DNA from: a virus
Lineage: Duplodnaviria; Caudoviricetes
IMG/VR virus record: IMGVR_UViG_3300032227_000993
Direction: 5' to 3' (one strand)
DNA: 64,000 nucleotides
Below, one piece after another: positions 34,801 to 59,924 of the stretch. A program made the position numbers and the translations under genes. Each line of letters begins with the position of its first letter. The stretch's first letter is position 1. The notes beneath the pieces are model-generated. The model worked only from the letters and a program-made list of their open reading frames with translations, made no database searches and was not told the origin of the DNA.

Positions 34801-35106
34801 ATGAATACTGAAAACATCGTAGCACACGCTCGTGCCCGTTTTGATCACGCGGCAGCCAAGCGAACACTCAAGGAAAAATATCAAGGAAAGTTGACATTTG
34901 CTCACGCTGGCGGTATGTGGCTGGCAGGTCCTGAACTACTTGCTACCTTGGCTGCCTGTACCGGTCCCACTGCTGTCGTACTTGACTTGTATGATACTCC
35001 TATTAAAATTATCCCCAACGAGTTCCGCGACATTGTAAGATCTCACTGGCAAGAACAAATGAATGCCTGGTTAGTTGAACACGATGAACTTAATAAGAAC
35101 AGATGA
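34801..35106 (+). CDS. Hypothetical protein, first gene of the modification cluster
   Basis: 101-aa ORF with ATGA coupling to the GT-like gene. Confidence 0.65.
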   Translation: MNTENIVAHARARFDHAAAKRTLKEKYQGKLTFAHAGGMWLAGPELLATLAACTGPTAVVLDLYDTPIKIIPNEFRDIVRSHWQEQMNAWLVEHDELNKNR

Positions 35107-35903
35107 CAACCGGCGTTCTAATTTTTGCTTACAATAACGAGCACATAGATTATCTTGCCATGGCCGCTTGGTCAGCAAAAAATATTCGCCGTCATCTCAA
35201 CTTGCCTGTTGCTGTTGTAACAAATTGTGCTGTACCTAAAGATTATCGCTTTGAACAGGTTATCATAGCACAAACTGATAGTGTGTACAGTCGCAAGTTT
35301 GAAGATATCGAGGAGTCTGTAACCTGGTACAATGCCAATCGCGTTGACGCATACAGTTTATCACCGTGGAGTCAGACATTGGTATTAGATGCTGATTATG
35401 TAGTGGCAAGCAGTGAACTTAGAAAAGTATTAGAAATTAAAAAAAATTTTGTAGCACACAACGCTGCATATGATGTTACTAATCAGCCTAACTTTAGCGA
35501 ACACAATTACTTTGGCCGCAATCGTATGCCCATGTGGTGGGCAACGGTAATGATGTTCCGTCGTAGTCGAGAAGCTGAAATGATATTTAGATGTATGACA
35601 ATGATCAAAGAAAACTGGGATCACTACCGCGGGCTGTATGGAGTAAGCCAGCGTACCTATCGAAATGATTATGCTTTGAGTATTGCCCTTGGCATTGTTG
35701 ATGGCCACACACAGACATATCCTGGTATTCCTTGGAACTTGGCATCTGTATCGCACTCGCATAAACTTTATCAGCTTGACACAGACAAATATCGCGTAGA
35801 GTTTCTAACACAAGATAATAAATCTCGATACATTACACTTGATCAAGATTTCCATGCCATGGGCAAAGCACATTTAGGAGCAATCGTTGACAATCCTCGC
35901 TGA
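35103..35903 (+). CDS. GT-A fold glycosyltransferase-like protein (GT8-like)
   Basis: GVLIFA...YL.MA..SA..I N-terminus, DxD motif LVLDADY, RNDYALSIA, late His motif FHAMGK. Confidence 0.6.
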   Translation: MTTGVLIFAYNNEHIDYLAMAAWSAKNIRRHLNLPVAVVTNCAVPKDYRFEQVIIAQTDSVYSRKFEDIEESVTWYNANRVDAYSLSPWSQTLVLDADYVVASSELRKVLEIKKNFVAHNAAYDVTNQPNFSEHNYFGRNRMPMWWATVMMFRRSREAEMIFRCMTMIKENWDHYRGLYGVSQRTYRNDYALSIALGIVDGHTQTYPGIPWNLASVSHSHKLYQLDTDKYRVEFLTQDNKSRYITLDQDFHAMGKAHLGAIVDNPR

Positions 35904-36663
35904 ACGCGGTTATCTCATACCTGCCATTGATTCTGAATCTACAGATTATTTGAGTTGTGCTGTACAACTGGCCCAGTCTATTAGACAATGGCATCCTGCG
36001 GCCAACATTGCTGTTGTATCTGTAAAAAGATGTAGTGATCCAGTATTTGATCATGTGATTCCCTTGCCATATGGCGACTTGGGCGGGTATGCCAATGACT
36101 GGCAATGTTTTGCCGCTACCCCTTACCGTGAAACTGTTAAATTAGAAGCTGACATGATTTGTGCCAGTCCCATTGATCATTGGTGGAAATTGTTTGAACA
36201 TCGCGATGTAGTTATTAGCAAGGGCTGTAGAGATTTCTACAATCAACCCGGAACTTCAAGACAATATCGTCAGATATTTGATAATAATAATTTACCTGAT
36301 GTGTACAACGGGATTACTTACTGGAGACGTAGTCAAACTGCCAAAGAATTTTTTGATTTGGTGCGTGATATTTTTGAACGTTGGAACGATTACAAAACTT
36401 TACTAAAATTTCCTGATCAATATCCAACCACCGATGTAGTGTATGCCATGGCAGCAGTTATCATGGGCGAAGAACAAGTGACATTGCCGCAAGGATTTGG
36501 CCCCACTATGGTTCATATGAAAAAAGGTATGATACCTACAAGTTCAGAAAACTGGACCGAGGAATTGGTATGGGAACACACAAAACCTGGACTACGAATC
36601 AACACCGTAGCACAATGGGGACTTGTACACTACCACATTAAAGATTGGAATTTGCATGAATGA
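35887..36663 (+). CDS. GT-A fold glycosyltransferase-like protein, paralogue of 35103
   Basis: RGYLIPA...YL.CA..LA.SI, ExD variant KLEADM, VYNGITYWRRS matching WATVMMFRRS of the neighbour, TTDVVYAMA. Confidence 0.55.
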   Translation: MTILAERGYLIPAIDSESTDYLSCAVQLAQSIRQWHPAANIAVVSVKRCSDPVFDHVIPLPYGDLGGYANDWQCFAATPYRETVKLEADMICASPIDHWWKLFEHRDVVISKGCRDFYNQPGTSRQYRQIFDNNNLPDVYNGITYWRRSQTAKEFFDLVRDIFERWNDYKTLLKFPDQYPTTDVVYAMAAVIMGEEQVTLPQGFGPTMVHMKKGMIPTSSENWTEELVWEHTKPGLRINTVAQWGLVHYHIKDWNLHE

Positions 36664-36976
36664 GCAAGAATTCTGGGCCGCACTGGCCCCGCTACCGGAA
36701 CCTACTCCACCTACATATCGTTTGTATTACAACGACTTAGGCGAGCCGTTATTTTACTCTATGGAAGATGTATCAGGTAAGTATATTGAGATCGACCACG
36801 CAACATACAGTAATCCGCCCACTCACGTGAGAGTAATAGACGGAAAGCTCGTAATATTAAAAACAAATTTTGTAACAAAACTAACTCCAGCGCCAACAGG
36901 TACACCGTGCGATCCTTTAGATGTTAGCATAGTAGTAGATGTTACAGAACCTCACACAAACTGGATTTTAAAATGA
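36656..36976 (+). CDS. Hypothetical protein
   Basis: ATG at 36656 overlaps the upstream stop region (track start 36623); ATGA coupling downstream. Confidence 0.6.
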   Translation: MNEQEFWAALAPLPEPTPPTYRLYYNDLGEPLFYSMEDVSGKYIEIDHATYSNPPTHVRVIDGKLVILKTNFVTKLTPAPTGTPCDPLDVSIVVDVTEPHTNWILK

Positions 36977-37896
36977 AAATAGACATAGCAGACTTGGATT
37001 GTATATATCTTTCCTATGACGAACCTAACAAAGAAGAAAACTGGGTAAAAATTAAGAACATGGTGCCTTGGGCTGTACGTGTTGACGGAGTCAAAGGAAG
37101 CGACGCCGCGCACAAGGCCGCCGCCGATGCTGCTTCAACAGATCGTTTTATTTTAATCGACGGCGACAATATCCCCGACGATAAGTTTTTTAATTTAACA
37201 TTGGATTTACAAGAACGCGATGTAGATTGTGTATTCCGTTGGAGAGCCAAAAATTACATCAACGGCCTCATGTACGGCAACGGAGGCTTGAGCTGTTGGA
37301 CCAAAGAATTTATTTACAGCATGAAGACACACGAAAATACAGATGGCTCTGCTGAAAATGATGTGGAATTTTGTTTTTATCCCAACTACATTGCCATGTA
37401 CGATTGTTATTCTACCACTTATCCCAACACTACACCTTTCCAGGCTTGGCGTGCCGGCTTCCGTGAAGGTGTTAAAATGTGTTTGAACAAAGGCACTCGA
37501 CCCACACTACAAGACTTTAAAGATCGTGTTCATCATCGTAATCTTGATCATCTTACTGTCTGGCAAAATGTAGGTCGTGATGTAGAAAATGGAATTTGGG
37601 CCATGCTTGGTGCTCGTATGGGCACCTACATGACAATGATTACTCCTGAGTGGGATTATCGACAAGTACAAAACTTTGACACACTACAAGACTTGTATGC
37701 CAGTATTGACGGACATGACCCTGAAATTATTGCCGCTCGTATCGCTGAAGATTTGTCTACCCAACTTGATTTGCCTATTACTATGATGTATGACAATGAA
37801 AGCAAGTTTTTCAAACACCATTATCGTAGCAACTGGCATAATCAAGGTGTGATGATTCGCGAGTTAGATGTCATCCGTAGTCAAGAAGGCTGGTAA
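36973..37896 (+). CDS. GT2-like glycosyltransferase
   Basis: CIYLSYDE...VDGVKG...AAADAASTDRFILIDGDN (DxD after a beta strand), GNGGL, AWRAGFREGVKM. Confidence 0.55.
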   Translation: MKIDIADLDCIYLSYDEPNKEENWVKIKNMVPWAVRVDGVKGSDAAHKAAADAASTDRFILIDGDNIPDDKFFNLTLDLQERDVDCVFRWRAKNYINGLMYGNGGLSCWTKEFIYSMKTHENTDGSAENDVEFCFYPNYIAMYDCYSTTYPNTTPFQAWRAGFREGVKMCLNKGTRPTLQDFKDRVHHRNLDHLTVWQNVGRDVENGIWAMLGARMGTYMTMITPEWDYRQVQNFDTLQDLYASIDGHDPEIIAARIAEDLSTQLDLPITMMYDNESKFFKHHYRSNWHNQGVMIRELDVIRSQEGW

Positions 37897-39281
37897 TGAC
37901 AAAAAGTGTATTCCTAACAGCTGCTGAACAGATGAAAGAGGACTTAGGTCCTGCTCTTTGTCTTGCTAAGTGGAAACAAGTAAGTCTACACTTACCTACA
38001 GGACTCAACAACTCCTGCTACCATCCGCCACTACACCAAATACCCAAGGAACTGTTAGCTGACAATCCGTCAGCACTACACAATACACCGCACAAAAAAG
38101 AGCAACGCAAAATTATGCTCAAGCAAGAGCGACCAACAGAATGCAGCTATTGTTGGACACAAGAGGACATGGGCAATCTGTCCGACCGTCACTATCGCTC
38201 AGGTGAGCCATGGGCCGCCATGGACTTTGAAGCAATAAAAAACTCTACTGGAGATGAAAATGTTATACCTAGTTATGTGGAAGTTAATTTTAATCATGCT
38301 TGTAACTTATCTTGTAGCTATTGTAGCCCGCAATTTAGTTCATCATGGCAGGCAGAAGTCGATAAGCTGGGAGGTTTTCCTACCTCAACTGTTCATAATG
38401 ATCCTACTCATTTTGTTGGATCTCGTCGTCCTATTCCAGCTAGGGAAGAGAATCCTTACGTAGACGCATTTTGGGCCTGGTGGCCTGAACTGTATCCAAA
38501 ACTAAAACACTTCCGCATGACCGGAGGTGAGCCTATGCTAGACAAAAATACCTATCGAGTATTTGATTACGTGTTGGCACTACCTAAGAACGATTTACAT
38601 TTAAATGTAACCAGTAATTTTTCTGTAGAAGATCAACTATTTGAAAAGTATCTTGGTTATGTCAAGCGTTTATGCGATACACAGATAGAACACTTTATGC
38701 AGTATGTAAGCGTCGACTCAGGTATTCCTAGCCACGCCGAATACATACGCCACGGACTGACATATTCTACCATGATTACTTCTGTACACAAGTATTTAAG
38801 AGAAGTGCCTAATCGTAATAGTCTTACATTTATTATTACAATGAATAATTTAAGCGTATTAGGTTTACGTAAACAGCTAGAAGGAATATTACACTTACGT
38901 CAAACATACAGCAAAACATACCAACGTGTTTGGTTTGATACACCGCTACTACGCCAACCAGCTTGGCAAAGTATCCAACTACTACCACCTTCATACATAG
39001 CCATACTTGAGGAAACTGCTGACTGGATGGAGCAGCATTTAGAAACCGCAGAGGATCCACTACACGGATTTAAGGACTACGAAGTACAGCGCCTACGCCG
39101 TGACATAGATTGGGCCAAGGAAGGCAGTAATCTTGACCCGGACTATGTTAAACTACAAAAAGCAGATTTTTATCGTTTCTTTGCGGAACACGATCGCCGC
39201 CGCAACACAAATTTTCTAAATACCTTTCCTGAGATGGCAGCCTGGTGGACAGAATGTGAATATCATGCCAAACAACTTTGA
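37896..39281 (+). CDS. Radical SAM enzyme 1 (N-terminal SPASM/twitch-like domain)
   Basis: CNLSCSYC and TGGEP; N-terminal CLAKW...SCYH...CSYC. Confidence 0.9.
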   Translation: MTKSVFLTAAEQMKEDLGPALCLAKWKQVSLHLPTGLNNSCYHPPLHQIPKELLADNPSALHNTPHKKEQRKIMLKQERPTECSYCWTQEDMGNLSDRHYRSGEPWAAMDFEAIKNSTGDENVIPSYVEVNFNHACNLSCSYCSPQFSSSWQAEVDKLGGFPTSTVHNDPTHFVGSRRPIPAREENPYVDAFWAWWPELYPKLKHFRMTGGEPMLDKNTYRVFDYVLALPKNDLHLNVTSNFSVEDQLFEKYLGYVKRLCDTQIEHFMQYVSVDSGIPSHAEYIRHGLTYSTMITSVHKYLREVPNRNSLTFIITMNNLSVLGLRKQLEGILHLRQTYSKTYQRVWFDTPLLRQPAWQSIQLLPPSYIAILEETADWMEQHLETAEDPLHGFKDYEVQRLRRDIDWAKEGSNLDPDYVKLQKADFYRFFAEHDRRRNTNFLNTFPEMAAWWTECEYHAKQL

Positions 39282-40428
39282 ATTAATACTCGATGTAGAA
39301 TGTGAAGTTTATGCGCAACTCAATCCGTATGCCGACGATGAGTTTCGTGATTTTTCACGACAAGAAATTGTACCTGGTGCGGTGTATGTAATTGGAAGAA
39401 TCCAATCAGCAATACACATTGATAAAATTAAACATCTAGCCGAGTCGGGTCAAGCTATCATTGTGTTTAGTAATCCTGCCGAGGGATCAGAAACTATTGC
39501 CTCGGCAGTGGCAAGGTTAGGCCTGATGCCATTGATTGAAGCTAAAAAAGTTTTATTATTAGGCGGCGGCGATATGGAAGAAAAATATCCTTACTATCGT
39601 TATGATTGTTTTTTAGTAAAAATACTTGATTACCTAAGTAATAAAAAAGCAATGAAGCGCACACATGAGATATTTGAAAAAAAAGATAAACCCTACAAGT
39701 TTTTATTTTTAAATGGCCGTACTAGACCTAATCGCAAGTACTTGTTAGAGAAATTCCGATTAAGTGGATTGTTAGATCAAAGTTTGTGGACCAATTTACA
39801 ATCCAGCTCGGCAGATAACAGATACATTACTCTTACCGATGAAACCACAGGCAAAGATTTAATGTATCCTAGTTTTCCTTACAAGTTATTGCCTAAAGAA
39901 TACGAAATAGCTGAATTTCAAAACAATATCGATACAACATTTCCTAGTGATGTAGGACAATTTATTAAGCCAAACTTGTTTAATAACGAATGGGGAGAAG
40001 TACACCTTAAACCCGAAGTCTACATTGATACTTATTTTAGTTTAGTAACAGAAACAGTATTCACATACCCCTATAGTTTTAGAACAGAGAAAATTGCTAA
40101 ACCATTGGCAATAGGACATCCTTGGATTGTGGCAGCCAATACCGGTTATTATCGTGATATGCGTAACTTAGGATTTAAGACGTTCGGGCATCTTATTGAT
40201 GAAGGTTTTGATGAAATAGTTAACGATCAAGATCGTATTCATCGCATTTGGCAAGTAACCGAGGACTTGTGCAAGCAAGACTTACCTGCTTTCTTAGCCG
40301 CTGCAGAAGAAGTGTGTAAATACAATCAACAACATCTCAAAGAACTACGCAGTAACATTATTCGTGATTTTCCTGAAGAATTTGTACAATTTTTAACAAA
40401 ACATATCAATGAACGATCTAGAATTTAA
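39256..40428 (+). CDS. Putative GT-B glycosyltransferase with a GT10/fucosyltransferase-like motif
   Basis: YFSLVTET...RTEKIAKPLAIGHPWIV resembles the GT10 F-E-N...TEK...G.VP motif; paralogous to 50588..51712. Confidence 0.4.
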   Translation: MNIMPNNFELILDVECEVYAQLNPYADDEFRDFSRQEIVPGAVYVIGRIQSAIHIDKIKHLAESGQAIIVFSNPAEGSETIASAVARLGLMPLIEAKKVLLLGGGDMEEKYPYYRYDCFLVKILDYLSNKKAMKRTHEIFEKKDKPYKFLFLNGRTRPNRKYLLEKFRLSGLLDQSLWTNLQSSSADNRYITLTDETTGKDLMYPSFPYKLLPKEYEIAEFQNNIDTTFPSDVGQFIKPNLFNNEWGEVHLKPEVYIDTYFSLVTETVFTYPYSFRTEKIAKPLAIGHPWIVAANTGYYRDMRNLGFKTFGHLIDEGFDEIVNDQDRIHRIWQVTEDLCKQDLPAFLAAAEEVCKYNQQHLKELRSNIIRDFPEEFVQFLTKHINERSRI

Positions 40429-41752
40429 AAAACAAGTATTAGACAACAAGTCTGCAAGTTTCTGTGCCGCTAAATGGTACAATGCTACCATATGGCTGGG
40501 CTCGGGCATGAGTACTTCTTGTCATCACCCGCCGGCTCACAAGATTGACACCGCAGAACTTGCAATCAATCCCAAGGCAATACATAATACTCAACAGAAA
40601 AAAGATGATCGGCGACTAATGTTGGCCGGCGAACGTCCTCGTGGATGCGAGTACTGCTGGAAGATAGAGGACATGGGAGTAGATGCCATATCCGACCGTG
40701 TTTACAAAAGTAAAATTTATCCTATTGAGGCATTAGATGAAGCATACACCACACCATACCAAGATGACGTTGACCTCAAAACCCTTGAAATCGCATTTGA
40801 CCGCACTTGTCAGTTTGCCTGTAGTTACTGTAATCCAGCGTTCTCTAGTACTTGGGTTAAAGACATTAGGAATAATGGTGCTTATACCAATCTTGTCAGT
40901 GACGGCCGTAATCACTTTACTCACGCTCATGATAGCAGTCAGCTATACACCTTTGGAGAAACTAATCCTTACACTGAAGCGTTCTTCAAGTGGTGGGAGT
41001 CGGACCTCCACAAGACGCTCCAAGAATTAAGAATTACTGGTGGCGAGCCAACCATGAGTGGCGAGTTATGGAAGTTAATTGATTGGTTTAGAGAAAACAA
41101 AGGAAAATCACAAACCAAGCTGGCCATTAACAGCAACCTTGGCATGGATAGACTAAAGCTATTAGACTTTGCTGAACGCATACGCGATTTACCGCACGTA
41201 GAAATTTATACCTCTAACGAAGCCACATTTACTCAGGCTGAATACATTCGTGACGGTTTAGATTACAATTTATGGATGCACAACGCACAAGAATTATTAG
41301 AAAGCGGCAGTATCAAAGCATTACACGTGATGTGTACTATCAATGCGTTGAGTCTTTGTTCATTGACTGAATTTTTAGACCATTTAATTGAAATGAAGGA
41401 AATGTATGGCAAAGAACGTGTTAGTTTTACACTAAATATTTTACGCTTTCCAAGTTTTCAATCACCGTTGGTATTATCTAAAACATTACGCAAAACATAC
41501 GAGTTAGATTTGAGCGTATGGATTGGTCGTAATCGTGATAATCCTTTGATACACGAACACGAATTGAATCACGCATTGCGTCTACGTGATTATCTTGCTA
41601 TGGTTGAGACTCCACATTCTGAAGCGTTTGAAATGCCAAAATTATTAAATGATTTCAAACAGTTCTACACACAATACGACGAACGTAGAAATAAAAATTT
41701 TACAACAACATTTCCCTTATTAGCAGATTGGTACAATGACATACGAGTATAA
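40409..41752 (+). CDS. Radical SAM enzyme 2
   Basis: CQFACSYC and TGGEP; N-terminal CAAKW...SCHH...CEYC. Confidence 0.9.
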   Translation: MNDLEFKKQVLDNKSASFCAAKWYNATIWLGSGMSTSCHHPPAHKIDTAELAINPKAIHNTQQKKDDRRLMLAGERPRGCEYCWKIEDMGVDAISDRVYKSKIYPIEALDEAYTTPYQDDVDLKTLEIAFDRTCQFACSYCNPAFSSTWVKDIRNNGAYTNLVSDGRNHFTHAHDSSQLYTFGETNPYTEAFFKWWESDLHKTLQELRITGGEPTMSGELWKLIDWFRENKGKSQTKLAINSNLGMDRLKLLDFAERIRDLPHVEIYTSNEATFTQAEYIRDGLDYNLWMHNAQELLESGSIKALHVMCTINALSLCSLTEFLDHLIEMKEMYGKERVSFTLNILRFPSFQSPLVLSKTLRKTYELDLSVWIGRNRDNPLIHEHELNHALRLRDYLAMVETPHSEAFEMPKLLNDFKQFYTQYDERRNKNFTTTFPLLADWYNDIRV

Positions 41753-42992
41753 CTCAACAGATCTAGTTAGGCCAACTGAGCTTACAGAACGTGAAGAATT
41801 TTTATTAAAAGATTCTAAAACATTTTGTATCTATCCTTGGATACATTTACACGCTTACCCAACCGGCGAAGCATATCCGTGCTGTCATGCAGAAATGGCA
41901 TACCCTGTGGGCAACTGCCGCCATAAAACACTTGAGGAAATTTATTACGATGCTCCCATGCGTGAATTGCGTAAAGATATGCTTGCTGAAAGAATGAATC
42001 CAGCCTGCGGACGTTGTTACGAGCAAGAAGAGTCTGGGTTCTTCTCAGGACGCAAGAGTGCCAACAAGCATCATGGTCATCATATTAAACGCATAGATGA
42101 TGGCAAGTTCCAGATGAGCTACTGGGATGTTCGCTTCAGTAATCTATGTAATCTAAGCTGCCGCTCGTGCGGTCATATCTTTAGTAGTAGCTGGTATCAA
42201 GACCAAGCGGCTCTAGCTGGGCCCAGCTGGACAGAAAACAATAAAGCACTCAATATTGCTGGGCGCAACAAGGACGATATGTGGGAACAATTACTGCCGC
42301 ATATTGACTATGTAGAACAGATTTACTTTGCCGGTGGCGAGCCCCTAATGATGGAGGAACACTACCGCATACTTGACGAACTTGAACGGCGCGGTCGTTT
42401 TGATGTGCGCTTAATCTACAACACCAACTTTACACAAACTAAACTTAAAGATCGTGTGGTGTTTGACTACTGGCGCAAGTTTGACTCTGTGGCAGTAGGC
42501 GCAAGTCTTGACGCTATGGGTCCACGTGCTGAATACATACGCAAAGGCACAGACTGGGCAACAGTAGAATACAACCGCGAACAGATGATGGCAATTTGTC
42601 CCAAAGTAGATTTTTACATTAGTCCTACACTTAGCATTATGAACGCACTACACTTGCCTAGCTTTCATAAAACCTGGGTAGAAAAAGGTTACATCAAGCC
42701 ACAAGACTTAAATGTAAACATACTACAAGACCCAGCCTACTTGCGTATTGACATTGCTCCTATCAAGTACAAACAACGTATTCGGCAGGCATACATAGAG
42801 CATCTAGAGTGGTTACGTCCATTGGATCCGCTTAACCGTGCTACTGTAGGATTTGAAAGTGCTATCAATTTTATGATGGCTACTGACAATACAGCATTGA
42901 TCCCCCAATTTTGGAGCAAGACGCTAGAGCTTGATAAAATTAGAGGCGAGCAATTACTCCAAGTTATTCCTGAACTAGAGGCGCTGTCTTGA
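41736..42992 (+). CDS. Radical SAM enzyme 3
   Basis: CNLSCRSC and AGGEP; N-terminal CIYPW...YPCC...VGN...CGRC. Confidence 0.9.
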   Translation: MTYEYNSTDLVRPTELTEREEFLLKDSKTFCIYPWIHLHAYPTGEAYPCCHAEMAYPVGNCRHKTLEEIYYDAPMRELRKDMLAERMNPACGRCYEQEESGFFSGRKSANKHHGHHIKRIDDGKFQMSYWDVRFSNLCNLSCRSCGHIFSSSWYQDQAALAGPSWTENNKALNIAGRNKDDMWEQLLPHIDYVEQIYFAGGEPLMMEEHYRILDELERRGRFDVRLIYNTNFTQTKLKDRVVFDYWRKFDSVAVGASLDAMGPRAEYIRKGTDWATVEYNREQMMAICPKVDFYISPTLSIMNALHLPSFHKTWVEKGYIKPQDLNVNILQDPAYLRIDIAPIKYKQRIRQAYIEHLEWLRPLDPLNRATVGFESAINFMMATDNTALIPQFWSKTLELDKIRGEQLLQVIPELEALS

Positions 42993-44197
42993 ACTTACCA
43001 CATGACAAATTTTGTGTCCTACCATGGGTTAGCCTTGAGACATCGCCCATAGGAACTGTACGTCCTTGCTGTCTGGCCGATCACGAGATTACCGATAATG
43101 CTGGTGAAAAGTTTAACCTTAGTACAGCAACCTTTTCGGCAATACAAAATAGTCACGATATGCGTCGACTACGTCGGCAGTTTATCGACGGAGAGCAACC
43201 TGAAACTTGCCGTAAATGTTGGAACGAAGAACAATCTGGTAGGACGTCTAAGCGTATGCATACTCTTGACCGACTTAAACACGTGATTCCACCCCAGGAC
43301 TGGACTATAGATGCTAAACCTTTGATGTTCCTTGATCTTAAACTGGGTAATATTTGTAACCTCAAGTGCCGTATCTGTGGATCGTGGAGCTCTAGTACCT
43401 ATGCCACTGAGGAGATGAAGCATACAGGTAATCAAAAAGGCAGCTTCCATCATCAAATGTTACGCCAAGGATCTTGGCCGCGCGAAAACAAAGTATTTTG
43501 GAATGAAATAGATGAGATATCATCGCAAATACGCTATTTAGAATTTACTGGCGGTGAGCCTTTTATGATACAAGAGCATTTTGATATGCTACAAGGATTG
43601 GTAGAACGTGGTATCGCACCCAATATTGAAATACACTACAATACCAATGGTACACAATGGCCTAAAGACGCTGACGAAATTTGGCGACATTTTAAAACTG
43701 TAGAAATTGCTTTTAGTATCGATGATGTAGGTGCCCGTTTTGAATATCAACGCAGTAATGCCAAGTGGCACGAGGTCTGCGAAAATATTGAAAAGTTTAG
43801 ACAACTTCGTATTCGATATCCCAACATACAGCTTCAAGTTTGTTCCACAGTAAATGTGTTTAATGTGTTTTATGTCGACGAATTAGCCAATTGGATTGAT
43901 AAACAAGAGTTTGATTTTGTCTATTGGAATATGATGCATGATGCTCCGTATTTTAGTATTGCTAACCTACCTAAGGCGGCCAAACAAACCATTACCAACA
44001 GATTGATCACCGCCGACGTGTCCAACAAACATAAACAAGAGTTTATAAACATCATGGACTTTATGAATAATGGCAATCAAGATTTAAGCAAACAAATGAT
44101 TGCTGAAATTCGCAAAGTAGATCTACGTCGCAATGAAAATCTTGCTCAAGTAGAACCAGAATTTGCCACCCTTATTGGCTATGAAGTTACCTCCTAA
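42989..44197 (+). CDS. Radical SAM enzyme 4
   Basis: CNLKCRIC and TGGEP; N-terminal CVLPW...RPCC...CRKC; TTG start overlapping the upstream TGA. Confidence 0.9.
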   Translation: MNLPHDKFCVLPWVSLETSPIGTVRPCCLADHEITDNAGEKFNLSTATFSAIQNSHDMRRLRRQFIDGEQPETCRKCWNEEQSGRTSKRMHTLDRLKHVIPPQDWTIDAKPLMFLDLKLGNICNLKCRICGSWSSSTYATEEMKHTGNQKGSFHHQMLRQGSWPRENKVFWNEIDEISSQIRYLEFTGGEPFMIQEHFDMLQGLVERGIAPNIEIHYNTNGTQWPKDADEIWRHFKTVEIAFSIDDVGARFEYQRSNAKWHEVCENIEKFRQLRIRYPNIQLQVCSTVNVFNVFYVDELANWIDKQEFDFVYWNMMHDAPYFSIANLPKAAKQTITNRLITADVSNKHKQEFINIMDFMNNGNQDLSKQMIAEIRKVDLRRNENLAQVEPEFATLIGYEVTS

Positions 44198-45470
44198 GAA
44201 TCTTTGCCTTGCTCCTTGGACGCACACTTATCTCAGTCCACAAACTGAGCGACGTATGTGCTGTGCCTCACGCGAGCCAGCGCAAAACTTTGAACAATAC
44301 ATAGATACAAAATCGGGAACAGGCCAGTACATTCCCTTGACTCTTGAACAACATTGGAACGGAGAGCATATGAAAAGTGTGCGCCGACGCATGATGGCCG
44401 GTGAAACACTACCTGAGTGTGCTGTATGTAACGAGCAACTGTTAAACACAGATGTTTATCGCAGTTATTTTAACCGTATGTTTGGCCACAAGCAAGACGA
44501 AATATGGCTGGCCACAGATAAAGACGGTTCTACCACTATGAAGCCAATAAGTTGGGACTATCGTTTCTCTAACCTATGTAACTTTAAATGTCGTATGTGT
44601 GGAGATATGCTGTCATCGGCGTGGGAATCAGAACAACGCCAGCATCGTATGATTGACTGGGATAATCCTAAAAATAACTGGATGAAATTAGAAGTACGTG
44701 CGGAGATAAGCAAGTTTCAAGACACTCAAATAGAAGAAGAATTTGCTCAGGCTGTCAAAGAACACCGTGTAGAAGAAGTTTACTGGGTAGGTGGCGAACC
44801 CTTAATGTATGAACAGCATTGGCGGTACATGAAACAAATAGTAGATCAAGGCGACGGAGATCGCGTGTATGCTAGATACAACACTAATCTTAGCAGAGTG
44901 GATTACAAAGGCATCAGTCTTTACGATGATATTTTGTGTCATCTTCGTGATTACCAGATATGTGCTAGCCTCGATGGAACAGGCGCCATTGGCGAATACA
45001 TCAGAACTGGACTTGACTATGCTGTGTGGCGAGATAATTTTGCCCGTGGAGTAGCAACAGCAAAAAATCGCAGACAATGGCGGATTGATTTTACCCTTAC
45101 TTTACCAGGGCTATTTGAAGTTGAAAACATCCAGGCCCTTGCTAGAGAATTTGATGTAGAAATACTTGCCAAAGTAATCTTTTCGTTCTCACCGGATATC
45201 ATCCTAAGTCCATTGGCACTACCACGCAAGCTACTCAACAGAACTGTTGACCGCCTGTTGCCCATGACCACAGGTGCTATGTATGATGTATTAGTTCAGC
45301 TAAAAAACCGGCCTACCTTTGAGGAGCAATGGCCCGACACCTTTGCCAAACAGCTTGCTTGGGGCAAGCATCGTGTGTTACAATTAGAGTCGATACGTGG
45401 CGGCATGACCCTTGCGGATATTTTACAACAGGATCCAGAAATTTATGAGTGGTACAACCAAATATCTTGA
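44163..45470 (+). CDS. Radical SAM enzyme 5
   Basis: CNFKCRMC and VGGEP; N-terminal CLAPW...RMCC...CAVC; likely start is the ATG at 44181. Confidence 0.9.
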   Translation: MPPLLAMKLPPKNLCLAPWTHTYLSPQTERRMCCASREPAQNFEQYIDTKSGTGQYIPLTLEQHWNGEHMKSVRRRMMAGETLPECAVCNEQLLNTDVYRSYFNRMFGHKQDEIWLATDKDGSTTMKPISWDYRFSNLCNFKCRMCGDMLSSAWESEQRQHRMIDWDNPKNNWMKLEVRAEISKFQDTQIEEEFAQAVKEHRVEEVYWVGGEPLMYEQHWRYMKQIVDQGDGDRVYARYNTNLSRVDYKGISLYDDILCHLRDYQICASLDGTGAIGEYIRTGLDYAVWRDNFARGVATAKNRRQWRIDFTLTLPGLFEVENIQALAREFDVEILAKVIFSFSPDIILSPLALPRKLLNRTVDRLLPMTTGAMYDVLVQLKNRPTFEEQWPDTFAKQLAWGKHRVLQLESIRGGMTLADILQQDPEIYEWYNQIS

Positions 45471-46500
45471 CCGAATAGAGATACTATTGTGGGACAAGGA
45501 TGAAAATCCTACTCATGTTTATGTTGACGTGTTTGATAATTCGCTTAGTCGTAAGTGGTTATCGGCATTAAATCAGTTATTAGTAAACAATTATCATTTA
45601 GAGAAGAATTATTGCTTCTTGGGCTTCCCTGGCGCTGACCGCAATGGCAAACTTATTATCGATCAGATAAACAAATCTATTGAATTTATTAATAACTCAG
45701 ACATTGGCTACACTATCGACGATCATTTTGCGTTGTCGGAAGTATTAGACAGCGAATCGCGTATTAATCATGACAGATTTAATCACTTACATAGATACTT
45801 TGAAGATTTACAAGGAGTAAGCGGCAATATTAGTCCTTACTACTGGAAAGCAGACAATGCTACACGATGGCATATTAGACAACTCAATCTTTTGTGCCAT
45901 GAGTTTGAATCTTGGGCACTAAGTTGGCGTAAAAAACACACAGCACCCGAGTGGGTTCGTCCTAGCCAGTTGATGTGTTGGCTTAATGCTCCACGTTTTG
46001 TATTAGATGACGAAGATTATGAATTATTTGGCATTGAAACTATTAATCGTTCCATGGGTGGAGTATTTGTAGGAGTAAACAAAGCGGTAGGCAAACATCA
46101 TTGGGAAGTATTCCACGATGAAGGTAGAGATAGTCGTGTTAGTGAATTAACCACTACAACATTAAAACCACAAACAGAAGCTGCTGGCGATTTTGACATT
46201 GAGTGGGGTGTTGATCCTAGTAATCGTGAGTGGCAGATAAATGTATTAAAAGATTTTAGAGAATGGTTGATTGTCAACGGCTTTGACCCCGACGATAAAA
46301 GTTTAACCATCGGTCATCCGCAAGTAGGGCAGGTAGATTTGGCAGCAAGTTTTGGAACTGACGACTACAACACTATTTGGGACAAACTTAATAATCAGTT
46401 GAATGTAAAAAGCATTAAAACTAGCAAAGCAAGTGCTAGTTACACGTACAATTGGTCTGATGTAGACTACATGGAGCAACAAATAAAATGTCTTGGTTAA
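45445..46500 (+). CDS. Hypothetical protein within the radical SAM array
   Basis: About 350-aa ORF; first ATG at 45445 (track start 45412); no CxxxCxxC and no recognised fold. Confidence 0.65.
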   Translation: MSGTTKYLDRIEILLWDKDENPTHVYVDVFDNSLSRKWLSALNQLLVNNYHLEKNYCFLGFPGADRNGKLIIDQINKSIEFINNSDIGYTIDDHFALSEVLDSESRINHDRFNHLHRYFEDLQGVSGNISPYYWKADNATRWHIRQLNLLCHEFESWALSWRKKHTAPEWVRPSQLMCWLNAPRFVLDDEDYELFGIETINRSMGGVFVGVNKAVGKHHWEVFHDEGRDSRVSELTTTTLKPQTEAAGDFDIEWGVDPSNREWQINVLKDFREWLIVNGFDPDDKSLTIGHPQVGQVDLAASFGTDDYNTIWDKLNNQLNVKSIKTSKASASYTYNWSDVDYMEQQIKCLG

Positions 46501-46589
46501 AAAATATTTACAAACGCATTGTACTTGAGATTAAGTATCGTCGCAAGTTAAAAGAACTGCGCAAGAAGGATCCTTTTATTTACAAATGA
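46488..46589 (+). CDS. 33-aa basic peptide (not in the ORF track)
   Basis: Hand translation MSWLKNIYKRIVLEIKYRRKLKELRKKDPFIYK; fills the gap exactly, and its TGA overlaps the carbamoyltransferase ATG (ATGA). Confidence 0.65.
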   Translation: MSWLKNIYKRIVLEIKYRRKLKELRKKDPFIYK

Positions 46590-48073
46590 AACATTATCTA
46601 GGTATTTCAGCTGGCTATCATGATGCCGCCGCTACTGTGATCAATAGTAACGGCGATATTCTCTTTGCTGGTCATAGTGAACGCTACAGTAAATTAAAAA
46701 ACGATAAAAATTTATGCGATAACTTACTATCTGAATTATGTGAGTGGCAATATGATACCGTGGCATTTTACGAACGTCCGTGGATGCATAATTTACAACA
46801 GTTGTATTCAGGACAACACAATGTAGGGCCATGGACCCGGCGTGGCACATTAAACAAACACCTAGGTACTTGGTATCAGACTCCAGCCAAGCACGAAGTC
46901 TGTTATCCTCATCACCTGTGTCACGCTGCCGCCGGATTTCAGACAAGTGTATTTGATCGAGCCACTGTAGTGGTAATAGATGCCATTGGCGAGTTTGATA
47001 CAATTTCAATTTATGGAGCAAAGTATGATAAAAAAGGTAAGGCAGTTTATAAAAAACTTTGGGGACAAAAATATCCACACTCAATCGGACTCCTTTATAG
47101 TGCAATTACTCAGCGCATTGGCTTACACCCGTTAGACGAAGAATATATTACCATGGGTATGAGCGCCTACGGCGATAAAACAGCGGCCAGTGTTATTATG
47201 GGTAATCATTTGATAGAAAATGCTAAAGAAATAAAATTTAAGCAAAATTTACACGCTGGTGTAGATAAAGATTTTATGTTTTTCACTACAAACGCAGATT
47301 TGGCCGCAGGAGTGCAAGCTGTTGCAGAAGAATTGATAAGTAATGTTATGATTAAAGCTCGTGAATTTGGCTGGAGCGATAATCTGGTGTATCAAGGCGG
47401 TGTTGCCTTAAACTGTTTAGCCAATAGAAATCTCGGTCGTTACTTTGAAAATATTTGGATCATGCCTTGCCCTGGCGATGCTGGCTCTAGTCTTGGAGCG
47501 GCTGCTCTTGCCTACGGCAAGCGCATCAACTTCACCAACGCTTATCTTGGTCACAACATTAGCGGAAAATATCCTGTTAACGCCTGTCTCGATCATTTAC
47601 TTACAGATAGAATCGTTGGAGTTGCTTCCGGTCGTGCTGAATTTGGGCCCCGAGCACTTGGGAACAGAAGTCTACTCGCAGACCCAAGAGGACCTGATAT
47701 AAAGGACCGTGTTAATGAAATCAAACGCAGACAAAAGTTTAGACCATTCGCGCCAGTCGTATTGGCAGAGCTCGCTGATGAATTTTTTGATATGCCTGCT
47801 GGCTTTCGTAATAGTCCTTACATGCAGTCAGTCGCTAAGTGTAAGCATCCTGAATTGTATCCTGCTATTGTTCATCACGACGGTACTAGTAGAGTACAGA
47901 CTGTACCAGATAACGGTTCGGGCATTAGGCAGTTGCTTGAAAAATGGTATGTCCTGACAGGATGTCCTATGCTGTTAAACACTAGTCTTAATATCCGCGG
48001 CGAACCCATGGTCAATGATCGAGCAGATGCTGATCGTTTTGAAAAATTATACAATGTGAAAGTGTGTTCGTGA
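46586..48073 (+). CDS. Carbamoyltransferase, NodU/CmcH/TobZ family
   Basis: LGIS..YHDAAA, ERYS, HHLCHAAAGF, IDAIGE, GGVALNC, GRAEFGPRALGNRSLLADP, RQKFRPFAP, LLNTSLN.RGEP. Confidence 0.92.
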   Translation: MKHYLGISAGYHDAAATVINSNGDILFAGHSERYSKLKNDKNLCDNLLSELCEWQYDTVAFYERPWMHNLQQLYSGQHNVGPWTRRGTLNKHLGTWYQTPAKHEVCYPHHLCHAAAGFQTSVFDRATVVVIDAIGEFDTISIYGAKYDKKGKAVYKKLWGQKYPHSIGLLYSAITQRIGLHPLDEEYITMGMSAYGDKTAASVIMGNHLIENAKEIKFKQNLHAGVDKDFMFFTTNADLAAGVQAVAEELISNVMIKAREFGWSDNLVYQGGVALNCLANRNLGRYFENIWIMPCPGDAGSSLGAAALAYGKRINFTNAYLGHNISGKYPVNACLDHLLTDRIVGVASGRAEFGPRALGNRSLLADPRGPDIKDRVNEIKRRQKFRPFAPVVLAELADEFFDMPAGFRNSPYMQSVAKCKHPELYPAIVHHDGTSRVQTVPDNGSGIRQLLEKWYVLTGCPMLLNTSLNIRGEPMVNDRADADRFEKLYNVKVCS

Positions 48074-49341
48074 ACGAATTTCCTATTAAAACAAAAACAG
48101 GATGCATTCTTAAGTGGTCCTGGAGCACAATATTTTTAAAACAAGGCGAAACAAATAGTTGTCATCGTTGTGCGTTATTGCCTATTGATCCTGATAACTT
48201 TGCTAACTTTCACAATCTTCCTGGGAAAGTAGAAGCCCGTGAAACAATGTTACGTGGAGAATGGCCTCAGGCAGGTTGCCAGAGTTGCCAGCGCATTGAA
48301 GAGGCCGGCGGAAAAAGTTATCGTATGAATCAATTTGATACTGGTAGAAACAATGGAGTAATTCCTATTGAATTGTTTGATGATCCTACTGCCACCGAAG
48401 TAGTTCCTACTATTTTAGAAATTTATTTTAATAATGTATGCAATATGGCTTGTGTGTACTGCGATGAAAGATTAAGCAGCAAGTGGGAAGAAGAAAATCG
48501 CAAATTTGGATCATACAGCATTGGCAACACACCGTTGATCAATAAATATGTAAATACTCCGCATTATGATCAAATGTTATCAGAATTCTGGAGATACTTG
48601 GAAAATTATGGACATCGTTTACGAGTATTTCAGATACTTGGAGGCGAGCCGTTCTTCCAAAAAGAGTTTGATGATGCCTTAGATTTTTGGGAAGCTCACC
48701 CTAATCCGCAGTTATCTATTGTTATTGTTACTAACTTAAAAGTTCCACCCAAAAAGTTCAAAGCCTATCTTGAAAGATTTAAACGTATGATTGCCGCCGG
48801 CGCCTGCAGAGAGTTTCACATCGCAGCCAGCCTTGATGCCTGGGGACCAGCAGAAGAATATGTTCGCCAAGGTTTAGATTTAGAGGAGTGGAGAGAAAAT
48901 TTTGAATATGCGATTACGCAACCACTGATAAAACTTGGAATAAACGCTACAATTTCATCACTCACTATCAAAGGATTTGCTGAATTATTATGTAATATTA
49001 GCAAGTGGAACAAAATTAGACAGGAATACACGTCCAATATTCAGATGAAAAATATTAAATTAAGTTTCCAAAATTTAACACACCCAACAGTCATGCGTGG
49101 GTCATGGTTTGGCCCCGGAGTGTTTGATGATGATTTTGCTGCGGCGTTGGCGGCCATGCCTGAAGGTGATCCTGAATACGATCATGCCAAAGAATACTTG
49201 TTGGGTATTAGTAAAGAGTGGTCCAACGGTGCTAAAAATGTTGAACGTATCAATGAATTAAAGGTGTATTTAACAGAATTAGATAGACGTAGAAATACCA
49301 ACTGGAAAGAAACATTCCCGTGGTTAAACAAAGAATGGTAA
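48064..49341 (+). CDS. Radical SAM enzyme 6
   Basis: CNMACVYC and LGGEP; N-terminal CILKW...SCHRC...CQSC. Confidence 0.9.
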   Translation: MFVNEFPIKTKTGCILKWSWSTIFLKQGETNSCHRCALLPIDPDNFANFHNLPGKVEARETMLRGEWPQAGCQSCQRIEEAGGKSYRMNQFDTGRNNGVIPIELFDDPTATEVVPTILEIYFNNVCNMACVYCDERLSSKWEEENRKFGSYSIGNTPLINKYVNTPHYDQMLSEFWRYLENYGHRLRVFQILGGEPFFQKEFDDALDFWEAHPNPQLSIVIVTNLKVPPKKFKAYLERFKRMIAAGACREFHIAASLDAWGPAEEYVRQGLDLEEWRENFEYAITQPLIKLGINATISSLTIKGFAELLCNISKWNKIRQEYTSNIQMKNIKLSFQNLTHPTVMRGSWFGPGVFDDDFAAALAAMPEGDPEYDHAKEYLLGISKEWSNGAKNVERINELKVYLTELDRRRNTNWKETFPWLNKEW

Positions 49342-49342
49342 G

Positions 49343-50608
49343 ATGAAAAAAATATTTCCTATTAAAACAGAAACAGCGTGTCTATTAAAATGGGCGTGGA
49401 GCACTATCTATTTAGGCCAAGGCAAAACCAGTTCGTGCCATCGGGTAGATCAATTTCCTATTGACCCTAATAATTTTGCTAATTTCCACAATCAGCCTGA
49501 AAAAATTGCCGCTCGCAAAACAATGCTTAAAGGAGAGTGGCCGCAGGCAGGTTGTCAGTACTGTCAAAAAATTGAAGAAGCAGGCGGCATGAGTGATAGA
49601 CAATACCAGCTTCACGAATCAAAAAATATGGATCATATTCCTCAAGAATTGTTTGATGATCCTACCGCCACCGAAGTAGTTCCTACGATTTTAGAAATTT
49701 ATTTCAACAATGTATGTAATATGGCTTGTGTTTACTGTGGAAGTCATTTTAGCAGCAAGTGGGAAGAAGAAAATAACAAATTTGGAGTTTTTCAAAAAGG
49801 AGCAGTTGAATTTGGCTGGAACAAACCACAGAATCCTGACTATGAAAAAATGCTTGCTGACTTCTGGAAGTATCTAGAAGAAAAAGATCGTTACAAAGCA
49901 ATACGCTACTATCAAATACTTGGTGGCGAGCCTTTCTTCCAAAAAGAGTTTGACACCAGCATTGAGTTCTGGGAAACCCATCCTAACCCTGATGTAGCAT
50001 TTAACATTATTACAAATTTAAAAGTACCACCCAAGAAGTTTAAAGCATACATAGACCGCTTTGGCAAGATGGTAGAAGAAGGCAAACTGTCACGCTTACA
50101 AATCACAGGAAGTTTAGACGCTTGGGGCCCACAAGAAGAATATGTACGCTGGGGACTAGACTTGAAAGAGTGGGAAGAAAATTTTACTTACTTGTTAGAT
50201 AAACCTTGGATTGTTATGGTAGTTAACATGGCTATTACTGGATTAACTATCAAGACTTTACCTGAGCTTATTGAAAAAATCAAAGAATGGAATTTGCGCA
50301 GGCCCGATGGCAATAAAATTTATCTATCGTTTATGACTGCAACTAATCCACTTGAACTAGTACCGGACATTTTTGGAAAGGGCGTGTTTGATGAAGATTT
50401 TAAACGCTTGATGGATGTGTGGCCTACAGATACGCCTGATGATTTAAGTGCTAAAGAACACATGGCAGGCATTATTAAACAAATTGAAAATGCTCCGCAG
50501 AAACCACTACAAATTGAAAATTTAAAAACTTATCTAACAGAATTAGACCGTCGCCGTGGCACACATTGGCCTACGTTATTTCCTTGGCTAGATAAAAACT
50601 GGATCTAG
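49343..50608 (+). CDS. Radical SAM enzyme 7 (close tandem paralogue of enzyme 6)
   Basis: CNMACVYC and LGGEP; shares long identical stretches with 48064 (ELFDDPTATEVVPTILEIYFNNVCNMACVYC, QILGGEPFFQKEFD). Confidence 0.9.
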   Translation: MKKIFPIKTETACLLKWAWSTIYLGQGKTSSCHRVDQFPIDPNNFANFHNQPEKIAARKTMLKGEWPQAGCQYCQKIEEAGGMSDRQYQLHESKNMDHIPQELFDDPTATEVVPTILEIYFNNVCNMACVYCGSHFSSKWEEENNKFGVFQKGAVEFGWNKPQNPDYEKMLADFWKYLEEKDRYKAIRYYQILGGEPFFQKEFDTSIEFWETHPNPDVAFNIITNLKVPPKKFKAYIDRFGKMVEEGKLSRLQITGSLDAWGPQEEYVRWGLDLKEWEENFTYLLDKPWIVMVVNMAITGLTIKTLPELIEKIKEWNLRRPDGNKIYLSFMTATNPLELVPDIFGKGVFDEDFKRLMDVWPTDTPDDLSAKEHMAGIIKQIENAPQKPLQIENLKTYLTELDRRRGTHWPTLFPWLDKNWI

Positions 50609-51712
50609 TGCGGGATCCATAGATTCTAACATTTCTGTCAGTTCAGTCCACAATATTTTTTCAAATCCACCACCGTAAAAGTGATTGTAGTTGTGTTCAA
50701 TAACTGTTCTAGCAGCATCAAACAATTCTTGTTTACCGTGCGCTGGCAATTCATCTAAGCTACGCAATAGACTAGCAATGCGTTCTACTCTAAGCACATC
50801 GTCGGTTTCATCGTCATAACTTTCGTCCCATAAGTGACTAAAAGTTTTAAATCCATAAGATCGTAAATGTTTTAAACTGCCAGCAGTTCCTATGATAATA
50901 AAAGGCATACGCAAACAAATAGGCTTGAAGGATTTTTCTGTTAAATGTAATTTGCGTCCGTGTGCCACAGTTTCGGCCACAAGATACAGTAAGCTATCAG
51001 CAGACTCGTCAAATAAACTTAGCCAACAACTGTGCATGGGAGCATCAGTTTCGCCAGGAAAATTAATAGGAAATTGTTGTTGAGCAAATACTTCACCAAT
51101 GTCAGGATAAATGTCATCAAACTGTTTAATAATATCGTGAACGCTGTGATTTTCACCTGGGCATACATCAGGGCAACTGATCCAGTTATTGGTTATTTTA
51201 TTTTTAAAAATATGATACAGCATTAATAATCGATGCCTGCGTGTTCCGCCAAGAATACGATTAGGCATAATAAATGTTTTTGTAATGGTACGCTGTTGCG
51301 GAGGAGTCATTAAAAATGTCTTATCGTATCCGCGATACCAATCTAATGCGGCCCATCCCCAGAAAAAATAATAATAACTTTTCCAACCATAGCGTCTACA
51401 TACTTCATCTACACTATCGCTGTCTTTTTCGCTGGTAACAATAGATCCTTGAACAGTAGGATCTCTGTAGGTAATATCTGAAATGTAAACTTTAGCTTCA
51501 TCAAATGTATCAGCGTGTATTGCCAAATCGATTGGTTGAACATCAAAAAATAGTGTATAATTATTTTCAAGGATGTCAGATCTGCCATAATTAATTAAAC
51601 TACCTGGATCACTTGCCCCAAAAGGAGCACACATTAACATTCTCGTTCCAATTCTGTTTTTTCGCAGCCAGGCCCAAAATGTGTTGTTGTAAATTTCGTC
51701 AATTCTAATCAT
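50588..51712 (-). CDS. Putative GT-B / GT10-like protein, paralogue of 39256
   Basis: LYLVAET...LTEKSFKPICLRMPFIIIG...LRSYGFKTF...E.YD matches the 39256 protein. Confidence 0.45.
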   Translation of the reverse strand: MIRIDEIYNNTFWAWLRKNRIGTRMLMCAPFGASDPGSLINYGRSDILENNYTLFFDVQPIDLAIHADTFDEAKVYISDITYRDPTVQGSIVTSEKDSDSVDEVCRRYGWKSYYYFFWGWAALDWYRGYDKTFLMTPPQQRTITKTFIMPNRILGGTRRHRLLMLYHIFKNKITNNWISCPDVCPGENHSVHDIIKQFDDIYPDIGEVFAQQQFPINFPGETDAPMHSCWLSLFDESADSLLYLVAETVAHGRKLHLTEKSFKPICLRMPFIIIGTAGSLKHLRSYGFKTFSHLWDESYDDETDDVLRVERIASLLRSLDELPAHGKQELFDAARTVIEHNYNHFYGGGFEKILWTELTEMLESMDPALDPVFI

Positions 51713-56335: not shown

Positions 56336-56364
56336 ATTGTAGCATAATACAAATTATTTTACAA
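56336..56364 (-). promoter_or_regulatory. Sigma70-type promoter
   Basis: TTGTAA-17 nt-TACAAT with a TGn extension, 9 nt before the ATG at 56326. Confidence 0.5.
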
Positions 56365-58545: not shown

Positions 58546-58614
58546 CTATTCAGATGTATCTACTGCGACTATCAGTGCTACCAATACAACAATAACTATT
58601 GCGACGGACATCAT
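58546..58614 (-). CDS. 22-aa single-TM microprotein (not in the ORF track)
   Basis: MMSVAIVIVVLVALIVAVDTSE; ATG overlaps the TAA of the VWA gene (TAATG). Confidence 0.45.
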   Translation of the reverse strand: MMSVAIVIVVLVALIVAVDTSE

Positions 58615-59891: not shown

Positions 59892-59924
59892 ATTTAACGA
59901 CTCCTGTAGTTTCATTATACTACT

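Follow-up and report, generated by a model that had tools for sequence, protein, structure and literature searches.

The 64,000-nucleotide stretch of viral DNA analysed here (IMG/VR record IMGVR_UViG_3300032227_000993; hereafter the window) encodes, at 37896-50608, an array of seven radical S-adenosylmethionine (SAM) enzymes in which a cysteine-rich domain homologous to the SPASM/twitch domains precedes the radical SAM core. Judged by their conserved cysteines, each of these proteins should bind two [4Fe-4S] clusters, one at the CxxxCxxC motif of the core and an auxiliary one on the four cysteines of the twitch domain. All seven are members of a family that is already catalogued, NCBIfam NF033640 (N_Twi_rSAM, 'twitch domain-containing radical SAM protein'). 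On balance, the evidence favours a role for them as two-cluster radical enzymes, each acting to tailor a sugar in a glycan that the phage makes and that is probably attached to virion proteins.

Seven paralogues with a common set of motifs

The stretch comprises ten plus-strand open reading frames (ORFs), packed tightly or overlapping in the ORF list, of which seven encode radical SAM proteins, numbered here from 1 to 7, and three (39256-40428, 45412-46500 and 46586-48073) encode other proteins. Copies 1 to 5 are located at 37896-39281 (461 amino acids, of the KW...SCYHPP type and with all seven cluster cysteines), 40409-41752 (447 amino acids), 41736-42992 (418 amino acids, of the PW...CC type), 42989-44197 (402 amino acids) and 44163-45470 (435 amino acids), and the accessory copies 6 and 7 at 48064-49341 (425 amino acids) and 49343-50608 (421 amino acids). 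An initial annotation of this DNA had recognised the seven by a CxxxCxxC motif followed by SS-x-[WY] and GGEP, and both the ORF list and a seven-protein alignment bear this out, every ORF being open and intact from its predicted start. Scores against NF033640 fall at 222-384 bits (299, 290.8, 384.1, 356.9, 279.4, 221.7 and 241.4 bits for copies 1 to 7, respectively), all above the curated cut-off of 170 bits, with matches running end to end, from model positions ~2 to 397 of 398. Because pairwise BLASTP E-values amongst the seven range from 1e-8 to 1e-172, and those against NF033640 from 1e-65 to 1e-115, these proteins are homologues and do not merely resemble one another by chance. Identity to copy 1 is 19-33%, and the closest pair, copies 6 and 7, share 56%.

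The same annotation had placed an N-terminal cysteine domain ahead of the core, and four invariant cysteines, arranged as C-x13-G-x4-C ... CxxC, are indeed aligned there in all seven proteins, the CxxC lying ~40 residues past the second cysteine. In the numbering of copy 1, the invariant residues of this module are C22, W26, C41, C83 and C86, those of the core are C136, C140 and C143 (CxxxCxxC), S148-S149 and G210-G211-E212-P213, and those near the C-terminus are R436 and P445. Across 102 family members, the four N-terminal cysteines and the three of the CxxxCxxC motif are invariant or nearly so. A proposed C-terminal motif also exists, but its spacing is D-x2-R-x8-P (D433, R436, P445) and not D-x2-R-x4-5-P. 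The residue before the last cysteine of CxxxCxxC is tyrosine in copies 1, 2, 6 and 7 and serine, isoleucine and methionine in copies 3, 4 and 5, respectively, in line with the earlier remark that the motif lacks an aromatic residue in the latter three. In a tree of the seven copies and 95 outside representatives, the three subgroups that had been distinguished by motif reappear as clades, with copies 3, 4 and 5 grouped at a support of 100, copies 6 and 7 at a support of 97-99, and copies 1 and 2 falling within the largest clade.

A twitch domain ahead of the barrel

That the additional cysteine domain is a SPASM/twitch homologue situated before the barrel, as had been suggested, is supported by the order of Pfam domains in copies 3, 4 and 5. 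The Pfam SPASM model is fully covered (1-67 of 67) at residues 31-95 (E 1.2e-9), 9-78 and 15-90 (E 2e-3) of these proteins, and Radical_SAM then follows at ~120-280 (134-272 in copy 3 and 119-277 in copy 4). Only nine of the 102 family members still match the SPASM model, and these belong solely to the clade of copies 3, 4 and 5.

An AlphaFold2 model of copy 3, computed from the 102-sequence family alignment, has a predicted local distance difference test (pLDDT) score of 94.3 and a predicted template modelling (pTM) score of 0.91. In this model a β-hairpin (residues 37-47) is predicted between the first two cysteines and is followed by helices, the CxxC opens a helix (residues 89-99) and the barrel comes next, with the C-terminal 75 residues forming a helical bundle that is devoid of cysteines. 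The spacing of the N-terminal cysteines corresponds to the initial half of a SPASM signature and resembles that of the BtrN twitch domain, and a C...C...CxxC arrangement around a β-hairpin fits BtrN as well. A full SPASM domain, which holds two auxiliary clusters, reportedly has a seven-cysteine motif that includes CxxC-x5-C-x3-C and a distal cysteine; here, only the four N-terminal cysteines are conserved, and none follows the CxxC at the expected spacing. The location of the domain is equally distinct, as SPASM/twitch domains are described as C-terminal extensions of the barrel (PMC9012708), whereas in these proteins the domain is N-terminal. An auxiliary cluster with four cysteine ligands is of the BtrN type, which is tied to two-electron oxidation, and in MoaA three cysteines leave an open iron site (PMC9012708). 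With four cysteines and, as in BtrN, no open iron site, the auxiliary cluster would therefore be expected to serve as an electron relay and not in substrate binding, which favours oxidation or epimerisation at a sugar C-H.

Amongst solved structures, the barrel comes nearest to enzymes of the twitch/SPASM type, namely BlsE (Z 13.2; root-mean-square deviation 3.7 Å over 221 residues), anSMEcpe (Z 12.9), SkfB (Z 12.5) and CteB (Z 12.4). A Foldseek search with the model of copy 3 returned anSME at an E-value of 1e-5, and matches of the barrel in Swiss-Prot were NirJ-like proteins, MftC and anSME. In common with BlsE (cytosylglucuronate decarboxylase) and anSMEcpe, the proteins have a superposable radical SAM barrel, but superposition on these and other solved or reviewed proteins is limited to that barrel, at residues ~115-390, and anSME carries two auxiliary clusters (a full SPASM domain) where the proteins described here have cysteines for one. 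No solved chain or Swiss-Prot entry with an N-terminal twitch domain followed by a barrel was found in the structure searches, and a sequence-profile search of the PDB with the family returned the generic barrel only, the best match being TigE (8vpo; E 4.6e-9). The likeness to BtrN (2-deoxy-scyllo-inosamine dehydrogenase) lies in a single auxiliary [4Fe-4S] site with four cysteine ligands and in a sugar/aminocyclitol context that, as here, includes a DegT-type aminotransferase. However, the twitch domain of BtrN follows its barrel, and there is no significant sequence match to it beyond that general to the superfamily.

A catalogued but uncharacterised family

Because NCBI already curates NF033640 under exactly this name and with exactly this architecture, the architecture itself is not a discovery, contrary to what the initial annotation had implied, and the locus is a well-defined addition to a catalogued, uncharacterised family. 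The match extends end to end, through an N-terminal four-cysteine twitch domain and then a CxxxCxxC barrel, with no architectural difference. NF033640 is, however, a bioinformatic subfamily without an assigned reaction, to which this locus adds a seven-copy jumbo-phage array with a defined conserved core. No characterised N_Twi_rSAM member was found in the PDB, Swiss-Prot or the literature searched, and the family has thus not turned out to be a characterised single-function class with the same architecture. A literature search for N-terminal twitch or N-terminal SPASM enzymes found no paper, broader searches yielding annotation-level mentions only.

A profile of the seven proteins retrieves 20,386 clusters at 50% identity with E<=1e-3, and 6,297 with E<=1e-30; many of the family clusters are tandem double or triple fusions. 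Family members elsewhere are also fused to GT2 or GNAT domains, and on one contig (L006) about nine radical SAM genes are interleaved with five GT2-domain genes, one GT2 being fused to a radical SAM domain. Amongst individual fusions, P0160 (576 amino acids) bears an N-terminal GNAT acetyltransferase and is encoded on a cellular contig (L007), adjoining mevalonate-pathway genes, and P0180 (688 amino acids) has an N-terminal subtilase-like domain fused to the N_Twi radical SAM protein.

Smaller arrays occur in named phages. Ralstonia phage RsoM2USA has two N_Twi copies above the cut-off and, beside its copy, a homologue of the 307-residue protein encoded directly upstream of copy 1, a phrog_1903-like pair and a short-chain dehydrogenase/reductase (SDR) enzyme. 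Vibrio phage K566 likewise has two copies above the cut-off, together with three just below it (133-155 bits). The arrays of RsoM2USA and of Vibrio phages K566 and K567 differ from the present one in their smaller size and in an identity to copy 3 of only ~23%, and their genes bear no annotation beyond 'hypothetical' or 'radical SAM domain-containing'.

Conservation and age of the array

The seven copies require six separate origins in the tree, only copies 6 and 7 being sisters. The notion of a phage-specific expansion, which formed part of the initial annotation, is not upheld, given six old lineages, a family size of ~6,300 clusters at E<=1e-30 and the occurrence of one member or more in cellular surroundings (L007). 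The idea that the paralogues are non-redundant fares better, at least for copies 1 to 5. In 57 full-length loci from related IMG/VR phages, these five copies and the carbamoyltransferase gene at 46586-48073 are present without exception and in the same order (57/57), the five as 1:1 orthologues; the gene for the 307-residue protein is present in 53, that for a 362-residue protein in 52, and orthologues of copies 6 and 7 in four. Relative to the three closest loci, non-synonymous divergence (dN) is 0.11-0.31, far below synonymous divergence (dS), which is saturated, and dN/dS is 0.04-0.17 where computable. This conservation (57/57 versus 4/57), together with the low dN, therefore points to five non-redundant core enzymes plus variable extras.

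Copies 6 and 7 are proposed to be a lineage-specific add-on. At 56% identity, this pair (48064-50608) is a recent tandem duplicate at a variable edge of the island. Instead of these copies, relatives such as L003 have an extra radical SAM gene upstream of the copy 1 orthologue and a minus-strand radical SAM gene after the carbamoyltransferase.

Copy number and Fe-S genes in related genomes

Five relatives (G001-G005), which are 97-100% complete and 343-353 kb in length, were searched, and the N_Twi genes that exceed the cut-off in them number 6, 8, 9, 10 and 16. Each genome also encodes one IscU (E ~1e-55) and two IscA-like proteins; no flavodoxin was found in any of the five. It thus appears that the phage itself supplies Fe-S assembly proteins for the 6-16 two-cluster enzymes that it encodes. 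In G001, the genes for IscU and one IscA are adjacent (G001:C1:291412-292087), with an N_Twi radical SAM gene ~900 bases downstream (292983-294158). Many of the N_Twi copies in these genomes are scattered far from the main array, and one copy in G001 (318146-319294) contains an in-frame TAG. Other radical SAM regions of one relative include methyltransferases, GT2, a mannose-6-phosphate isomerase domain and a UDP-glucose/GDP-mannose dehydrogenase. The only match in a scan of genome contigs, a fragment 75% identical to copy 1, is present on CAZKLA010000200.1 (L009; 1480 bases), which is binned in an uncultured Aquiluna sp. metagenome-assembled genome; this contig, too short to name a host, probably comes from a phage and was mis-binned, so that it gives at most a weak hint of a host.

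Genomic setting and sugar-enzyme context

The window is phage DNA and derives from a T4-like freshwater jumbo phage whose own contig is ~361 kb in length. It carries a baseplate wedge protein ~35% identical to its counterparts in Atu_ph07, Phosso and GAP32, and also encodes baseplate hub and virion proteins; relatives of this phage come from freshwater and lake metagenomes. A megablast search of positions 36000-52000 of the window against GenBank phages gave zero matches. The array belongs to an island (~34.8-55.9 kb) that encodes soluble proteins only and that immediately follows the genes for baseplate and fibre, with which it is co-oriented. As none of the 20 island ORFs (0/20) contains a transmembrane-like segment, the pathway that they encode is taken to be cytoplasmic, without a lipid-carrier transferase, flippase or polymerase.

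The initial annotation held that no substrate was identifiable, but this was overly pessimistic, since the neighbouring genes indicate a sugar chemistry. The gene at 46586-48073 (+) encodes an O-carbamoyltransferase of the NodU/CmcH/TobZ type (Carbam_trans_C, E 5.6e-48; Carbam_trans_N, E 9.1e-33; phrog_1601, E 3.9e-94). Further along the island, on the minus strand, lie genes for a DegT/DnrJ/EryC1-family sugar aminotransferase (53869-54945; PF01041, E 8.7e-55) and an SDR nucleotide-sugar epimerase/dehydratase (54899-55873; PF01370, E 1.2e-37; GDP_Man_Dehyd, E 1.8e-25; phrog_540, E 5.4e-50). Within the array itself, the 390-residue product of 39256-40428 (+) is predicted to be a divergent glycosyltransferase-like protein of the GT-B fold. 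Its AlphaFold2 model (pLDDT 92.1) has PDB matches that are all weak (E >= 1e-3, probability up to 0.99, TM <= 0.46), amongst which GT-B enzymes are best, including SdgB, an alpha-1,3-fucosyltransferase, PglA, glycogen synthase and T4 beta-glucosyltransferase; in the AFDB clusters the best matches (E to 6e-13) are unnamed, with named GT1, GT10 and GT47 entries after them. A paralogue of this protein (374 amino acids), encoded at 50588-51712 (-), is 35% identical to it over the C-terminal 109 residues and has an L003 orthologue at 45% identity.

Proposed function

In the proposed pathway, the SDR enzyme and the DegT aminotransferase would prepare nucleotide sugars, and the GT-B-like transferases, perhaps with the 307-residue partner, would assemble a glycan, which the carbamoyltransferase would O-carbamoylate, on an acceptor in the cytoplasm, the likeliest being fibre or baseplate proteins of the virion. 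Each radical SAM paralogue would abstract hydrogen from a specific sugar C-H, with the fully cysteine-ligated auxiliary cluster taking or returning an electron, so that one position would be oxidised or epimerised in the style of BtrN or HygY. The paralogues would differ in the position that each modifies on a single carbamoylated glycan made by the phage, five of them making up a fixed core pathway. The four invariant cysteines and the sugar-enzyme context are consistent with a BtrN/HygY-like class of sugar dehydrogenases or epimerases. A virion fibre or baseplate acceptor is favoured because the pathway is cytoplasmic, because it is positioned directly after the structural genes and because no hydroxymethyl-pyrimidine route is apparent.

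Two large products encoded before the island are candidate fibres or adhesins and possible glycan acceptors. One is a 4,922-residue ORF (15028-29796) downstream of the baseplate wedge gene, and the other a 649-residue protein (29803-31752) with five He_PIG Ig-like domains and a SprB repeat.

A more general proposal, that N_Twi_rSAM is a large class of radical glycan-tailoring enzymes, is advanced only tentatively. Under it, five fixed paralogues and a number of optional ones might each edit a different sugar position, by epimerisation, oxidation or deoxygenation, of a glycan whose assembly on fibre or baseplate proteins of the virion takes place in the cytoplasm, with about two clusters per enzyme supplied by the phage IscU and IscA.

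A number of points weigh against sugar tailoring as proposed here. The sugar substrate is read from gene context, and the geometry of the four-cysteine site from sequence and predicted secondary structure. The peptide-modifying enzymes anSME, SkfB, CteB and SuiB are as close in structure as the sugar-acting BlsE and DesII, and the acceptor could be a virion protein, DNA or a small molecule. The putative GT-B identity of the 390-residue protein derives from a predicted structure with PDB E-values of ~1e-3, no sequence-family match being found in Pfam or NCBIfam. Several conserved island proteins (those starting at 34801, 35103/35887, 36623, 36973 and 45412) have no assignable fold or function. 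Finally, the IscU/IscA genes and the copy counts are those of relatives 74-78% identical in copy 3 and not of the window itself.

Alternative explanations

Most SPASM/twitch enzymes modify a protein or peptide, and the array might correspondingly introduce cross-links, epimerisations or cysteine/serine oxidations into the giant fibre proteins or the baseplate proteins nearby, or into a small precursor that the island encodes. Amongst the best structure matches in Foldseek and VIA are indeed anSME, CteB, SkfB, SuiB and ChlB; the island directly follows the 4,922-residue ORF and the Ig-domain protein, two small ORFs (101 and 117 amino acids) are conserved at its start, and one relative (P0180) carries the subtilase-like fusion. 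Nevertheless, such a role is judged unlikely, as the top VIA match is the sugar-acting BlsE, with DesII also close, and sugar enzymes account both for the neighbours in the island and for the domains fused to family members elsewhere (GT-B, GT2, GNAT, carbamoyltransferase, DegT and SDR). Searches of Pfam and NCBIfam revealed no peptide-recognition domain, including the recognition element (RRE) of ribosomally synthesised and post-translationally modified peptides, and no precursor was recognisable, this being a weak test in view of the small ORFs at 34801 and 36623. Alternatively, since T4-like and other phages glycosylate hydroxymethyl-pyrimidines, the island might hypermodify phage DNA or nucleotides with tailored sugars. 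The GT-B model does weakly match T4 beta-glucosyltransferase, but amongst many other GT-B enzymes; the pathway is wholly cytoplasmic and a ThyX gene lies nearby (56354-57016). However, a ThyA-like deoxynucleoside monophosphate hydroxymethylase (PF00303) was found in none of the five near-complete relatives (0/5), compared with 10 of 14 control genomes, which weakens a T4-style reading, and the island is co-oriented with, and directly follows, baseplate and fibre genes and not replication genes. DNA modification is therefore considered quite unlikely, even though virus glycosyltransferases that place diverse glycans on DNA have been described (Pyle et al. 2024, as cited in PMC12619734).

Very unlikely, too, is a diffusible aminoglycoside-like or other small glycoside in place of a polymer on a macromolecule. 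The gene set does resemble aminoglycoside pathways in kind, with a BtrN-like twitch radical SAM enzyme, a DegT-type aminotransferase, GT-B proteins and a TobZ-type carbamoyltransferase, and it lacks lipid-carrier, flippase and polymerase genes; a similar trio in cyanophages has been labelled 'antibiotic synthesis genes' by annotation, without experimental test (PMC12801897). Yet neither a synthase for a cyclitol or for 2-deoxy-scyllo-inosose nor a resistance gene or an exporter was seen, and related arrays rich in GT2 genes resemble oligo- or polysaccharide assembly. The framing with which the analysis began, that of a previously unrecognised, phage-expanded and domain-permuted radical SAM family, could draw on the reversal of the domain order relative to the C-terminal extensions of reviews (PMC9012708), on the viral origin of the nearest Atlas structure clusters and on literature searches that found no paper on such enzymes. 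It is nonetheless highly improbable, its novelty being refuted by the existence of NF033640, and a phage expansion being at odds with the six old lineages and the abundance of family clusters that include cellular contexts.

Other features of the island and its surroundings

The packed plus-strand block of the island begins with a 101-residue ORF (34801-35106, +) that has no Pfam or PHROG match but has an L003 orthologue at 63% identity and is present in 35 of the 57 related loci. It is followed by two paralogues with 26.5% identity, a 266-residue protein (35103-35903, +), homologues of which lie beside N_Twi radical SAM genes in RsoM2USA (L002) and L008, and a 258-residue protein of the phrog_1903 family (35887-36663, +; E 9.5e-8; 46/57 loci), and then by a 117-residue ORF (36623-36976, +) without a family match, whose L003 orthologue is 48% identical.

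The 307-residue partner is encoded directly upstream of copy 1 (36973-37896, +), and homologues with 39-45% identity occur directly upstream of N_Twi radical SAM genes in RsoM2USA (L002; 9031-9984 and 11389-12090), L006 (5037-5975) and L008 (7588-8517), and this family is an immediate upstream neighbour that recurs across four distantly related phage lineages. Its homologues number more than 8,000, and none of them has a Pfam domain. Its assignment as a GT-A/GT2 enzyme, considered because of a D-x-D-like 'IDGDN', was not confirmed, hhalign against GT2 giving a probability of 2.3% and a PDB profile search being empty. A predicted complex of copy 1 with this protein scored 0.00, which is evidence neither way. 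The 362-residue protein encoded after copy 5 (45412-46500, +) has no match in Pfam, NCBIfam, PHROGs or the Atlas, and a 729-residue protein (51711-53900, +) is homologous in its C-terminal third to the 307-residue partner (BLASTP E 1.3e-7), its Atlas matches being viral hypothetical clusters only.

Occurrences of the T4 late-promoter motif TATAAATA show no enrichment (two observed versus five expected), and sigma-70 and terminator scans of the island gave results at chance level. Past the island, the ThyX thymidylate synthase gene lies on the minus strand, and farther on are genes for a DUF2201/vWA metallopeptidase-like protein (58614-59960, -) and a MoxR-type AAA ATPase (62225-63310, -), with small ORFs between the two.

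Implications

The value of the locus lies in the combination of unanswered enzymology with a conserved five-enzyme core that has cultivable relatives in RsoM2USA and K566. Members of the family occur as multi-copy arrays in phages and bacteria, and once their reaction is identified, thousands of genes could be annotated together; a type of radical chemistry on carbohydrates that is new might also emerge. Five strictly conserved paralogues and a carbamoyltransferase, 6-16 copies per genome and Fe-S genes of the phages' own together suggest an expensive and important trait, possibly virion glycosylation that affects adsorption, stability or the evasion of host defences. If glycan tailoring is indeed the function of these enzymes, radical chemistry would be a routine means by which jumbo phages diversify their surface glycans.

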